Position numbers and translations under genes: made by a program. Positions 4,001-51,009 of a stretch of 64,000 nucleotides of DNA are shown piece by piece. The notes beneath the pieces were generated by a model. The model was not told where the DNA came from, did not search any database, and worked only from the letters and a program-made list of their open reading frames with translations. Source of the DNA: Bacteroidales bacterium. Its GTDB lineage: Bacteria > Bacteroidota > Bacteroidia > Bacteroidales > UBA12077. How positions within the stretch are numbered: the first letter of the stretch is position 1; each line of letters starts with the position of its first letter. The DNA is taken from positions 28,941 to 92,940 of the forward strand of contig WTBR01000043.1 of the NCBI GenBank assembly GCA_013138975.1. Direction: 5' to 3'.

Positions 4001-5572
4001 GTTTGTAAAATTGGGCTTGAGAGTAACTTCTTTGAGCTGGGTGGGCATTCAATAAAAGCTACACTTTTAGTTTTAAGGATAAAAAAAGAACTTGGAATGG
4101 ATGTGTCCATTTCAGATATCTTTAATAAGCAATCCATTAATAAGATTTTAACTGTTGGAAAGAAGAAAATAGAAGATAAGTCTTTCATTCAAAAATCTGT
4201 CGAAAAAAGAGAATACTACTCCGCTTCCTCAACCCAGAAAAGGTTATTTGCACTACAAGCAATGCAAGATGATACTTCTTTCAATATGTCGATCGCTTTT
4301 AAATTAAAAGGTGAAGCAAATGAGAAGAAAATAGAAGAAATTTTCAATATACTTATACAAAGACATGAAAGTTTAAGAGTCTCTTTTCAAGTGATAGATA
4401 ACAATATTGTTCAGATTGTTGATGATAATGCAGATATAAAACTCAAATCACGATTAATAAAGAATAGCGAAATCGATGGAGTTATTGAAGATTTTATTAC
4501 AAAATTTGATATTAGTGTTGCTCCACTTTTACGGGTAGGCTTATTTAAAATTATAGATTCTGATGATGCCGGGTTTAACTATTTATTGGTAATTGACGTG
4601 CATCATATAATTGCTGATGAAGCATCATATAAGATATTAATTCAAGAGTTTATTGATTTATACTCTGGTAAGAAATTAGCAGTAACAGAACTACAGTATA
4701 AGGAATTTGCATATTGGCAAAATGATACAGTAAATAATGATGCATTAAGAAAACAGGAAAAGTATTGGTTAAGTAAATTTTCAGATGGAATTAATGAATT
4801 AAACCTTCCGAAAAGAGAAGATTCTATTCAGATTGAAGACCAAGCCGCAATTAAAAGATTCGAACTTGACCTTGATAAATCTATAATACTAAGCGAATTT
4901 GTTAAAAGTTCGAATACAACAATGTATGTATTTCTTTTATCCATTTTTAAAGTATTACTAAGTAAATATTGTAACCAAAAAGATATTATTGTTACATCTC
5001 CGGTTTCTACACGACCCGGCATTAAATTTCAAAATACCATTGGTTTATTTGTAAATATGTTGCCAATGAAAAGCCATATTGAACCAGATATGGAATATTC
5101 TAATTACCTTTTAGATTTGAAAAATGAGGTGATGAGTAATTTGGAGAATGATATGTTTCAATTTGAAAACATCGTTTGGAGTCTTAAGATAAAGGAAAAA
5201 TTTAAACGAAATATATTACTTGATGCCGTTTTCGTGTATAACGAAATAAAGGATAATGAAAATAAATTCATTTTAAAAGATCAAAACGGTACAAATAAAT
5301 TAGTTCAAAAAGACATTGATAAAAAGGATTTACAAAACAATTTACAAATAGATGCTATAAAAAAGAAGGGGAATGTTTCCTTCGAACTTTCATATAGGAC
5401 AAAAGATTACACAGAAGAGGCTATCGAATTATTTGCAGAAAATTATCTCCTTATCTTGAACCAGGTTTTAGAAGATAAATCAATTTTAATTAAAGATATT
5501 ATTATTGATTCTAATAAGATAACGGTAGATGCTCCTGTAATTTCCAATCCGGATTCTGATTTTAGATTTTAA
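1049..5572 (+). CDS. NRPS subunit, C-A-T-C (A domain Gly-like code)
   Basis: N-terminal C domain: [18 protein letters not shown] at 1475-1495. A domain: [11 protein letters not shown] at 2885-2917, [61 protein letters not shown]. T domain: FFELGGHS, Ser codon 4049-4051. Second C domain: [18 protein letters not shown] at 4601-4621. The protein ends ...DSDFRF. Confidence 0.9.
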   Translation: [1507 protein letters not shown]

Positions 5573-5607
5573 TTTCAGGTTTGAGCGGAAACAAAAGAGC
5601 TTATATT

Positions 5608-5760
5608 ATGTCAACGATGCTTTTTTAGTTGAAAACCTGACAGAGTCAGAATGACCTAACAGATCTAAATGAGATATTCATATTCGCCTAGCCGCTTGAA
5701 GCGGCTTGGCGAATTCAAAACTCTGTCAGGCAGACCCGAAACATAAAGCTTGACTTGACA
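5608..5760 (-). repeat. intergenic repeat family A (MITE/REP-like), full copy, inverted orientation
   Basis: The reverse complement begins TGTCAAGTCAAGCTT..TTTCGGGTC.GCCTGACAGAGTTTT and ends GGTCATTCTGACTCTGTCAGGTTTTCAACTAAAAAAGCATCGTTGACAT. Both ends match the copy at 24359-24487. The internal segment differs and contains the hairpin TTCGCCTAGCCGC/GCGGCTTGGCGAA (~5684-5716). Confidence 0.8.
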
Positions 5761-49264: not shown

Positions 49265-49332
49265 AGAAAAAGAGAAAATACCTGCAGATATCAGGAAAGA
49301 ATCAAAAATATAAAACATTAAAAATTAAAGAT

Positions 49333-51009
49333 ATGAATATTTTACTCGGATTATTACCTTTTTGGGATCCTCAAATTCCACCATTAGGGATTGCATGCTT
49401 AAAAAGTTATTTAAATAAAAATGATCTTGATGCAGTTTGTTTTGATTTAAACACCAAAATAGAATTTCGAAATATTTACGATAAATATTTTAGTGTCTTA
49501 AATCGAGTAATCCCCGAAGACAAAAAAGGGAACATTTACAATATTGGAAATCAGGTTGTAAGAAATCATCTCACAGCACATTTGCATGTTGAATCTCAGG
49601 AAAAGTATTTTTTGGTTTTAGGAACCTTGGTTTTAAATACTTTTTATACCAAACTTGAGAATGATGATTATATTGAGTTAATAAATATTGTTAAAGAATA
49701 TTATGTATTACTTGAAAAAGCAATACGTGAATTATTCCTTAAGCATAAACCGACAATATTTGGTTTATCAGTGTTTGGTGATACATTAGGACCATCAATT
49801 TTTGCTTTTAAATTGGCAAAAGAAATAAACCCTGAAATAAAAACGATAATGGGTGGAGGTATTTTTGCCGATCAGCTAGCGCCAAATTCTCCTAATCTTG
49901 AGTATTTTATGAATTATTCTCGCAGTTTTATCGATAAGTACGTTATTGGTGAAGGCGAAGAGCTATTTCTTGCATTTGTTAAAGACGAAATTCCGGAAGA
50001 TGAAATTGTATTATCAAAGCAAAGCAGTGGAAACTATCTGAGTATTGATGAATTGAACGTTCCTGTTTATGATGATTTTGAACTTAAACATTATGCTCAT
50101 GTTGGATTTTATGGGGCAAGAAGTTGTCCATTTCAATGCAATTTTTGTTCTGAAACAATTAATTGGGGAAAATATCGAAAAAAGGAGATAGACAAAACAG
50201 TAAGTGAATTTAAATTATTAAATGAGAAGTATAATAATCAATTGTTTTTATTGACCGATTCAACATTAAATCCTGTTGTTACTCCACTTTCAGAAGCATT
50301 AATAAAAGCTGATTTTACAGTGTATTGGGATGGATTTTTAAGAGCCGACAAACACGTTTGCAGTGAAGAGAATACTATACTATGGAGAAAAGGCGGGTTT
50401 TATAGAGCTAAATTGGGCTTAGAAAGTGGATCTCAGCGTATGTTGGATTTAATGAATAAATCAACATCAGTTGAAACCTATAAAAAAGCGCTAGCCAGTC
50501 TCGCCTTCGCAGGAATAAAAACAACAACATTTTGGCTATTTGGATTCCCCGGTGAAACAGAGGAGGACTTTCAAAAAACACTTGACTTTTTAGAAGAGTG
50601 TAAAGATTATATATACGAGGCCGATTGTAATGCTTTTAATTATTTCGTATCAGGTCAGGCAAATTCAGATGATTGGTTGCAAAATAGCACAAGTTCAGCG
50701 CTATTCCCGGAATGGACAAGAGAATATTTTATTACACAAACAAATGTATTGGATAGTTTACCTTCCAGACAAGATGCCTATTCTCGGGTCAATCGTTTTA
50801 TGGAACATTGTAAAAAACTAGGAATACCTAATCCATATTCTTTAACAGATATTGATAAGGCAGATAAACGATGGAAAAGCTTACATCTTAATGCTGTTCC
50901 TGCCTTAATGGATTTTAAAAGTAATACATATATAGATGAATGTAAAGATGTAAAACAATATACGTTTACATCAGAAGTCGATACAGAAGATTTTGAGTTT
51001 GATCTTTAA
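49333..51009 (+). CDS. B12-binding (class B) radical SAM enzyme (paralog of 5854 gene)
   Basis: The N-terminal segment is LLPFWDPQIPPLGIACLKSYL...IFGLSVFG...KTIMGGGIF...YVIGEGEELF. The CxxxCxxC motif CPFQCNFC lies at 50125-50148. It is collinear with the 5854 protein to the C-terminus (NPY..AD.RWK.LH.NAVP). It ends ...TEDFEFDL. Confidence 0.85.
   Translation: MNILLGLLPFWDPQIPPLGIACLKSYLNKNDLDAVCFDLNTKIEFRNIYDKYFSVLNRVIPEDKKGNIYNIGNQVVRNHLTAHLHVESQEKYFLVLGTLVLNTFYTKLENDDYIELINIVKEYYVLLEKAIRELFLKHKPTIFGLSVFGDTLGPSIFAFKLAKEINPEIKTIMGGGIFADQLAPNSPNLEYFMNYSRSFIDKYVIGEGEELFLAFVKDEIPEDEIVLSKQSSGNYLSIDELNVPVYDDFELKHYAHVGFYGARSCPFQCNFCSETINWGKYRKKEIDKTVSEFKLLNEKYNNQLFLLTDSTLNPVVTPLSEALIKADFTVYWDGFLRADKHVCSEENTILWRKGGFYRAKLGLESGSQRMLDLMNKSTSVETYKKALASLAFAGIKTTTFWLFGFPGETEEDFQKTLDFLEECKDYIYEADCNAFNYFVSGQANSDDWLQNSTSSALFPEWTREYFITQTNVLDSLPSRQDAYSRVNRFMEHCKKLGIPNPYSLTDIDKADKRWKSLHLNAVPALMDFKSNTYIDECKDVKQYTFTSEVDTEDFEFDL

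Follow-up and report, generated by a model that had tools for sequence, protein, structure and literature searches.

The locus described here raises the question of why megasynthase subunits and free-standing enzymes of unrelated folds should share the last four residues of their sequences. It lies on a 64,000-nucleotide stretch from a Bacteroidales bacterium (assembly GCA_013138975.1, contig WTBR01000043.1, positions 28,941 to 92,940 of the forward strand), which was analysed as a whole and is referred to below as the window. It encodes nonribosomal peptide synthetase (NRPS) and polyketide synthase (PKS) subunits built from condensation (C), adenylation (A), carrier (T), ketosynthase (KS) and acyltransferase (AT) domains, together with radical S-adenosylmethionine (rSAM) enzymes and a U32-like protein. 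Our analysis suggests that the shared ending, D-F-x-F (DFxF), is very probably an assembly-line docking motif of some sort, and comparison of sequences makes it likely that this C-terminal motif is read by a half condensation domain (hC) at the start of the next subunit.

All 21 plus-strand open reading frames (ORFs) of the window were translated, and domains were assigned with Pfam and NCBIfam. Exact C-terminal DFxF was found on six proteins. NRPS 1049 (C-A-T-C) ends in DSDFRF (5552-5569, plus strand as for all features given here), set off from a catalytic C domain (HHIIADE) by about 20 aa of linker. It is followed by the stand-alone B12-rSAM enzyme 5854 (NGDFAF, 7540-7557), the U32-like protein 7603 (KEDFNF, 8746-8763) and the rSAM enzyme 8954 (QGDFNF, 10769-10786), which belongs to another B12-rSAM subfamily nearest to TIGR04190; the genes for these three enzymes lie between 1049 and the hC-led subunit 11045. 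The remaining two exact tails are SDDFQF on NRPS 15009 (hC-A-T-C; 18879-18896), whose next subunit 18931 is hC-led, and EADFDF on PKS-NRPS 24549 (KS-AT-T-C; 28959-28976), whose next subunit 29415 is hC-led as well (K64/N67). A seventh tail, TEDFEFDL on B12-rSAM 49333 (50983-51006), consists of DFEF plus two residues, and its gene stands directly upstream of the hC-led 51190. Variant tails end NRPS 11045 (hC-A-T-C; DITFNV, 14966-14983) at its C|hC junction with 15009, subunit 41453 (...T-C; EEDWDI, 45917-45934), for which the next megasynthase is the hC-led 51190, and NRPS 51190 itself (...T-C; QIEFEL, 58201-58218), with x = E; Trp at -3 and Ile/Leu at -1 are recurring variants in related loci. 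The seven C-terminated subunits (1049, 11045, 15009, 24549, 29415, 41453 and 51190) each carry a complete terminal C domain with HHxxxD kept, separated from the tail by about 20-35 non-conserved residues. The tail is not present on the permease fragment, the acyl carrier protein, the methyltransferase, the two small proteins, the islet ORFs and the T-terminated NRPS 18931 of the window. A first-pass annotation of this DNA had listed the seven tails, four looser endings and these absences, and our translations bear out its residues and positions, with the qualification that 58235, one of the four looser endings, is carrier-terminated and probably belongs to another code (see below).

An ending of this kind might reflect chance, an AT-rich compositional bias or a nucleotide-level signal at gene ends, since GAT, TTT and TAA are common in DNA of 31% GC. 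From the window's own amino-acid frequencies, however, the probability of DFxF at a fixed position is p = 1.8e-4 per protein, and the calculated chance of at least six exact ends among 21 proteins is about 2e-18. Besides the terminal occurrences there is a single DFxF in about 20,000 window residues (DFVF at aa 1688 of 29415), which looks like chance because it lies inside the core of a C domain. We considered it as a fossil junction and rejected it on account of this position within a C-domain core motif. Among 100 DFxF tails from related loci the Asp codon is GAT in 83 and GAC in 17 cases, the Phe codons are TTT/TTC in 66/34 and 79/21 cases, the middle codon is unconstrained and each of the three stop codons is found. 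Synonymous and stop codons thus vary, and selection therefore acts on the protein and not on a nucleotide signal. The tail is moreover kept in clusters of 41-44% GC, and other genes of the same loci do not carry it. We regard this explanation as refuted, in agreement with the first-pass annotation, which had held that the shared ending cannot be chance.

The conservation of the tail was traced through related NRPS/PKS loci, about 160 in number and drawn from at least eight phyla, namely 80 loci from species-representative genomes (genome set) and 79 loci from metagenomes (metagenome set), in both of which ORFs were called and domains were assigned by phmmer with the window's own domains as queries. 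C-terminated subunits end in the strict pattern in 40/94 cases of the genome set and 26/82 of the metagenome set, and in a relaxed pattern in 69/94 and 50/82. The corresponding values for rSAM enzymes are 43/91 and 27/81 (strict) and 71/91 and 67/81 (relaxed), and for U32 proteins encoded within these loci 4/9 and 1/3 (strict) and 7/9 and 3/3 (relaxed). T-terminated subunits show no strict tail (0/42 and 0/21, thus 0/63 for both sets together) and one relaxed tail (1/42 and 0/21). ORFs of at least 200 aa without domain match have a strict tail in 0/223 and 3/55 cases and a relaxed one in 6/223 and 5/55; the three strict cases in the metagenome set end in GDFGF and are further tail-bearing enzymes. 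Anchored at the C-terminus, the rSAM tails have an information content of 2.6/3.6/1.0/3.2 bits at -4/-3/-2/-1 and those of the C-terminated subunits 2.1/2.8/1.1/2.5 bits, compared with 0.5-0.9 bits in the linker before the tail. Conservation of the terminal residues but not of the preceding linker in distant clusters is what the first-pass annotation had expected of a docking motif. Every tail-bearing terminal C domain retains HHxxxD.

For the rSAM enzyme 5854 the search was extended to its homologues, and among the best 120 of 448, which share 40-63% identity and derive from Acidobacteriota, Aminicenantes, Bacteroidota and Bacillota metagenome-assembled genomes, 72 end in strict and 108 in relaxed DFxF; nearly all show the ending (D/E)(D/E)G-D-F-x-F. 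Relatives with one to four residues beyond the tail were also found. Five contigs around distant 5854 homologues (41-44% GC) have the same style of cluster, with these tails on a KS-AT-T-C protein, an rSAM enzyme, a U32 protein and hC-A-T-C proteins. The C-terminal extension of these rSAM enzymes, otherwise disordered, has a further conserved stretch, Y-I-D-E-x-K-x-V-K-(K)-L-x-x-A, which is separated from the tail by about 10 residues and carries 1.3-2.7 bits per position at -26 to -13 in the same 120 homologues. In the window it is present at 50929-50955 (49333 aa 533-541) and weak in 5854; it could be a second contact.

Since the tail is family-wide in rSAM enzymes of the 5854 type, it could be thought to serve the enzyme that bears it, as an active-site lid or an autoinhibitory plug. 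This seems extremely improbable, as this four-residue ending recurs on proteins of unrelated fold (C domain, two rSAM subfamilies, U32 and MiaB-like proteins). In an AlphaFold2 (AF2) model of 5854 computed with 30 homologues (predicted local distance difference test, pLDDT, 88.7; predicted template modelling score 0.88) the last approximately 30 residues are coil with pLDDT 66/54/48, and because of this low-confidence coil the tail does not appear to be packed on its own enzyme. Modelling thus predicts that DFxF tails are disordered and do not dock in cis. Even the relaxed pattern is shown by only about 10 of the U32 protein's 150 closest 50%-cluster representatives, the clear cases including its two closest relatives (NFDF, DFNF) and P0169 (EFSF), so that most U32 relatives work without a tail.

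The enzymes that bear the tail are diverse. The rSAM enzymes 5854, 8954 and 49333 have Radical_SAM and B12-binding Pfam matches, the B12 match of 5854 and 49333 being below the gathering score, and the cysteines C276, C280 and C283 of the CxxxCxxC motif are invariant in 30 homologues. By these features, CxxxCxxC and an N-terminal B12-binding domain, the three belong with the cobalamin-dependent (class B) rSAM enzymes and are methyltransferase-like; none of them reached the cut-off of an NCBIfam equivalog. Relatives of the 8954 subfamily in other loci mostly do not have the tail (1/3). The U32-family protein at 7603-8766 is a regular member of related NRPS clusters, and its sole NCBIfam similarity is a weak one to the prephenate-dependent tRNA hydroxylase TrhP. 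U32 hydroxylases that do not depend on O2 exist, and by analogy 7603 may hydroxylate a carrier-bound residue anaerobically. At C|hC junctions of two further loci, GDFGF tails were found on a MiaB-like rSAM enzyme (UPF0004 + Radical_SAM, 431 aa; locus L141, 18161-19456) and on a 373-aa protein with no Pfam match and a Cys-rich N-terminus (CARC...CNFC; locus L131, 8856-9977). Altogether the tail was found on at least five unrelated enzyme types, and since most U32 relatives are tail-less, it therefore tracks context and not fold. From its distribution over these sequences the tail appears to be a portable tag gained by unrelated proteins that work at C|hC-type junctions.

The element with which such junctions begin on the downstream side is the hC. 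Six subunits of the window are led by it, and in each the Condensation profile is entered at about 186-196 of 456, from about residue 7-13. The hC therefore consists of the C-terminal lobe only (profile positions about 186-456 of 456), does not contain the catalytic histidines and is fused directly to A-T; neither the two-lobe fold resembling chloramphenicol acetyltransferase nor the HHxxxDG motif of NRPS condensation domains is present. In each of the six we propose, from sequence, a site of tail contact. The hC of 11045 (11045-11872; Condensation profile 187-278 from residue 13, with neither HHxxxD nor TubC_N) has the site W68...N71 (nt 11246-11257) within ...KKLFWLSNESDYRL..., and that of 15009 (15009-15785) has R55...N58 (nt 15171-15182). 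For the hC of 18931 (18931-19695; Pfam Condensation 196-455/456 at aa 7-237) the site is S51...N54 (nt 19081-19092), for that of 29415 (29415-30239) K64...N67 (nt 29604-29615), for that of 51190 (51190-52044) G67...S70 (nt 51388-51399) and for that of 58235 (58235-59068) K68...K71 (nt 58436-58447).

Set against 139 full C domains of these loci, 57 hCs showed a signature of their own, comprising YWLxKLSG...FPYD, L-x-[73]-Φ-S-N-x-S-D-x-R/K-L-H-M-I-L, PIxKQ...FINT, QNYP and LFDVAVLLENIH. A Thr that is nearly invariant in full C domains (131/139) is replaced in hCs by Arg or Lys (41/57). Because of this conserved signature, distinct from that of full C domains, the hC appears to be a separate subfamily selected for something other than catalysis. 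Structurally, an AF2 model of a free-standing hC (P0121, locus L047) is half a C domain (pLDDT 84), and NRPS C domains make up all of its top matches in the PDB (TMq 0.73, TMt about 0.4).

Gene order links the tail to this domain. The subunit after a tail-bearing one is nearly always hC-led. The megasynthase gene pairs of the related loci are mainly 49 of the type C->hC, 14 T->C, 7 T->KS and 12 in which a C-terminated subunit is followed by an A-led one, half of the latter being hCs missed by the detection threshold. rSAM or U32 genes lie in between at 39 of the 49 C->hC pairs. A DFxF-type tail was found at 43/53 C->hC junctions, compared with 0/6 of the C->A-led junctions that have no hC (p = 1.8e-4), and the latter six show endings such as DDLENE instead. 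This bears on the possibility that the tail is a docking motif with a different receptor (the A domain, the carrier domain, a composite hC-A surface or the upstream C domain), with the hC covarying indirectly. The hC is always fused to A-T, so that co-occurrence alone cannot separate them, and AF2 left the tail undocked on an isolated hC, in a prediction from a 17-row alignment. The absence of the tail in front of A-T-led subunits without hC, together with the position of the covarying residues described next, which lie within the hC and adjoin its specific motif, makes a different receptor rather unlikely.

The variable residue x of the tail covaries with the hC of the following subunit. In a sample of 73 non-redundant junctions, x of the upstream tail is acidic in 17/17 cases in which hC column 76 is Lys or Arg and in 15/56 otherwise (p = 3e-8), and when one junction was sampled per 45%-identity cluster the median was p = 7e-6. 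The tails of the rSAM and U32 enzymes follow the same rule, with x acidic in 12/12 cases of basic column 76 and 12/53 otherwise (p = 7e-7). The basic-76 hCs do not form one clade, because the nearest neighbour is also basic at this column in only 4/17 of them, and pairing each with its nearest non-basic hC gave 17 contrasts, of which 12 were favourable, none unfavourable and five tied (p = 2.4e-4). A second pairing is that of x = Arg with an aromatic residue (Trp/Tyr) at column 73, seen in 8/8 cases and in 0/65 otherwise; because those hCs are related, it counts as one or two events. Columns 73 and 76 are contained in or adjoin the S-N-x-S-D-x-R motif that is private to the hC. The column rule was found in the genome set and held on the new junctions of the metagenome set, and the window agrees with it: DFRF of 1049 is paired with the Trp-type hC of 11045 (W68) and EFEL of 51190 with K68/K71 of 58235. 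Between partners, tail position -3 (F versus other) showed no significant covariation (p = 0.27), and no hC column was among the top covariation matches of position -4.

The same observations speak to the alternative to docking given in the first-pass annotation, a scaffolding or compartment-targeting tag recognised by a protein encoded elsewhere than in the window; a scaffold, a compartment shell, a chaperone or a protease could be such a reader. Acidic-aromatic C-terminal tips serve as hub-binding tags elsewhere, as in the C-terminal tip of SSB and the HbYX motif of the proteasome, and a reader encoded by a distant gene would be compatible with the window. However, across the roughly 160 loci, which represent many phyla, no extra conserved gene accompanies the tails; the tail is missing from T-terminated subunits of these assembly lines, and the tail type shifts with the N-terminal element of the next subunit. 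Together with the covariation of x with the hC and the specialisation of the hC, this renders an outside reader quite improbable. The other suggestion of the same annotation, a docking motif with the half-C domains as candidate receptors, gained comparative support from junction dependence, covariation and the specialised hC subfamily. Small proteins of the window were also considered as receptors: the ORFs 23133, 23706, 46046, 47156 and 48336 match no Pfam or NCBIfam family and none recurs in the related loci, and they were dropped for this absence of recurrence.

Further tail types in these loci go with other junctions. In related loci T-terminated subunits end in ...E(I/F)I(I/F), and after them come TubC_N domains, the β-hairpin docking domains known to read short linear motifs (SLiMs). 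A third C-terminal code, DDLENE(F/G), occurs in L016, L036 and L038, where the next subunit is A-led. In the window the C-terminated 29415 ends in ...VEDLE (41232-41246) and its successor 41453 is A-led and without hC; this ending, which the first-pass annotation had listed neither among tails nor among absences, is probably of the DDLENE type and outside the DFxF code. Likewise YEEVEF at the end of the carrier-terminated 58235 (63920-63937) probably serves as a SLiM of the carrier type, directed at a partner encoded outside the window, and does not belong to the C|hC code. Three tail types are thus matched to three junction types, and we therefore conclude from the sequences that three docking codes appear to coexist in these loci.

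The tailoring enzymes behave accordingly at each type of junction. Where an rSAM gene stands at a carrier|β-hairpin junction, its product copies the SLiM of the upstream carrier protein, as in L054 (NKEEFIF / TEEEFIF) and L069 (EQFIF / VDFIF), with further mimicry pairs in L071 (KKITI / LELSI) and L064 (VIEI / ELDL). At C|hC junctions the last residue, F versus non-F (I/L), agrees between upstream tail and tailoring tail ([[45,2],[9,9]], p = 6e-5), and residue x is identical in 18/65 upstream-tailoring tail pairs, with 7.3 expected. That the tailoring enzymes show the handle of the upstream subunit implies the same reader on the downstream subunit.

Given these neighbours, the DFxF tail might itself be taken for a part of the SLiM/β-hairpin (TubC_N) system, with which it shares the general logic; the rSAM tails of L054 and L069 (EEFIF, DFIF) even precede bona fide TubC_N subunits. 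In the window, however, no protein matches TubC_N, nor does any N-terminal stretch of 110 aa at E <= 10, whereas the N-termini of L054 and L069 as positive controls gave 1e-12 and 1e-8. In hC-led subunits only 8-40 residues precede the C-lobe, below the approximately 50-60 aa of a β-hairpin domain, the junction is C|A and not carrier|C, and the motif is unlike the L-R-G-E-I type. Membership in the known system is very improbable.

Several points weigh against the reading of the tail by the hC. Binding between the two is an inference from comparative data, and covariation can be indirect, for instance if mediated by a third partner or caused by joint inheritance of cassettes; judged from the relatedness of the hCs, the Arg/Trp pairing probably represents one or two lineages. 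In the AF2 model of P0121 the protein's own tail is undocked (pLDDT <50), in a prediction from a shallow alignment of 17 rows; word-indexed homologue searches with hC queries returned one and four proteins, which did not suffice for a deep alignment. No recognisable tail is present at about 20% of C->hC junctions or on some rSAM enzymes (L006, L023, L025, L029). The loci were gathered around rSAM genes, which skews the gene-order statistics to rSAM-containing junctions. Finally, a C domain and as many as three tailoring enzymes would have to compete for one site.

With these points in mind, docking of the tail on the hC could work as follows; physical binding, the exact pocket, time-sharing or competition, the order of events, the chemistry of the enzymes and their action on the acceptor aminoacyl-carrier are what we infer. 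The modules of these anaerobe-type NRPS/PKS clusters are split between C and A, so that the upstream subunit ends with a catalytic C domain plus tail and the downstream subunit starts with hC-A-T. The tail, (acidic)-(acidic)-G/x-D-F-x-F-COOH, would be a short linear docking motif on a disordered linker and the hC its receptor, with the tail lying against the helix and loop that bear L-x-[73]-Φ-S-[76]-x-S-D-x-R. Both Phe residues would be buried, the pairing would be tuned by polar or charged contacts of Asp(-4) and x(-2), and x together with hC positions 73 and 76 would set which tails fit which hC. Stand-alone B12-rSAM enzymes, U32-like proteins, the MiaB-like rSAM enzyme and the 373-aa protein, carrying the tail of the upstream subunit, would be tethered to the same hC-A-T module. 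An amino acid would be loaded on hC-A-T, the rSAM and U32 enzymes would then modify the aminoacyl-carrier while tethered by their flexible linkers, and the upstream C domain would next dock via the same handle and form the peptide bond.

One subunit of the window has such an enzyme in cis. At 30723-32087 (29415 aa 437-891) an rSAM plus B12-binding unit lies inside the first A domain of the hC-led NRPS 29415, an interrupted A domain, in the order rSAM then B12, the reverse of the stand-alone enzymes (B12 then rSAM). A-domain interruptions of this kind also occur in L001, L003, L004 and L022, and no description of an rSAM insertion in an A domain was found in the literature searched. The arrangement in 29415 fits with the carrier-bound amino acid of an hC-led module as the target. 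Interrupted A domains with tailoring inserts are comparable to the tail system in giving a tailoring activity access to the aminoacyl-carrier of one module, and differ from it in that the tail system would act in trans and, as proposed, reversibly.

Related loci also encode free-standing hC or C domains (L047 9180-9962, L064 841-2391, L068 8500-9966, L077 8515-9981, L007 15561-17000). The free-standing hC P0121 (L047 9180-9962) has 260 aa and ends in DDDFEF. Free-standing complete C domains combine an N-terminal β-hairpin docking domain with a C-terminal DFxF tail, and by this composition they appear to be fully trans-acting condensation catalysts tethered at both ends.

Among known docking systems the SLiM/β-hairpin pairs (TubC_N, PF18563; tubulysin, epothilone, rhabdopeptide, enacyloxin) are the closest in principle, with an extreme C-terminal disordered motif of 4-5 residues and an N-terminal element as reader. 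The same motif can be used with several partners, and non-carrier proteins have SLiMs too (PMC9113145). In the Kj12B SLiM, L-R-G-E-I, which binds with a Kd of about 15 µM, hydrophobic and charged positions alternate and the charged ones set partner choice (PMC6195595). The DFxF tail has the features of a SLiM donor, namely four conserved last residues behind a variable linker, in coil with pLDDT of about 50-65 or lower, and the charge-complementary choice of partner may have its counterpart here in sequence covariation (acidic x with Lys/Arg at column 76, Arg with Trp/Tyr at column 73). The differences lie elsewhere. The proposed receptor is a pseudo-condensation domain reduced to the C-lobe, and TubC_N is not found; the junction lies within a module, C|A, and not at carrier|C, with donors that are C-terminated or free enzymes; and the motif D-F-x-F is also borne by rSAM and U32 enzymes. 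The DFxF system coexists with SLiM/β-hairpin docking in related loci and falls outside that family, since it has neither the defining β-hairpin domain nor the carrier|C junction.

COM domains likewise pair successive NRPS subunits through short terminal elements, which are transplantable. In COM pairs a helix of about 20-30 aa that follows an epimerization domain acts as donor, and the N-terminal portion of a complete C domain acts as acceptor (PMC9113145). The DFxF donor, unlike this, consists of four terminal residues after a C domain, and the proposed acceptor has no N-lobe, so that neither side corresponds to a COM element.

For the proposed role of the hC the X domain of glycopeptide NRPSs is a precedent. 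It is a degenerate domain of the C/E type that recruits the Oxy cytochrome P450s, and thus, like the hC, a catalytically dead platform of condensation fold that brings trans-acting tailoring enzymes to a carrier-bound intermediate. The P450s, however, bind via a surface of their own fold and not via a C-terminal tail, and the X domain does not dock subunits on each other. By inspection, the hC is N-terminal and half-length and the window has no P450 genes, whereas the X domain is full-length and follows the last carrier domain.

In the full-text literature, in which subscription papers are incompletely covered, we found no description of DFxF tails, half-C receptors or the recruitment of rSAM enzymes to NRPSs, and the literature searched gave no characterised product for this class of clusters, which is spread over many uncultured phyla. 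The first-pass annotation had known of no docking system of this form. For the receptor and the junction this stands, but the SLiM/β-hairpin principle had already been described: SLiM docking in megasynthases is known, and the proposed receptor, the junction and the clientele are new. More tentatively, the hC might be a so far overlooked kind of docking domain, half a condensation domain put to new use as a hub that its partners share in time and where slow radical chemistry on the loaded amino acid finishes before condensation, with -DFxF as a portable tag and x plus positions 73/76 as an address code. Docking elements govern the partnering of subunits and helper enzymes in peptide and polyketide assembly lines and are main handles for their re-engineering. 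A four-residue tail with a defined receptor at C|A, a favoured engineering cut site, would be an unusually small transplantable connector, and if the proposal is true any enzyme given -DFxF could be delivered to a chosen module. It would also explain how oxygen-independent tailoring enzymes (B12-rSAM, U32-like) are recruited to carrier-bound substrates in anaerobes.

Some further features of the window are recorded here. Subunit 41453 (41453-45934), the only downstream subunit of the window that has no hC, contains an AT insertion in its A domain (aa 253-649, nt about 42209-43399), so that its order is an N-terminal A part, a KS-AT linker with a full acyltransferase domain, the remainder of A, T and C. 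Two neighbouring small proteins (173 and 217 aa) without tail or significant family match are encoded mid-cluster at 23133-24359. Three ORFs without family match (324, 217 and 201 aa) occupy 46046-48941 between 41453 and rSAM 49333, in the lowest-GC stretch of the window (0.27); they interrupt the cluster, have no counterpart in related loci and may represent an insertion. Rfam gave no match in the window, including the following repeat. The 12-mer TCGACCTGACAG occurs three times on the plus strand (10791-10802, 21582-21593 and 24386-24397; 0.02 expected), every time in an intergenic spacer, and belongs to a repeated element of about 100 nt with CTGACAG/CTGTCAG inverted repeats and a T-run.

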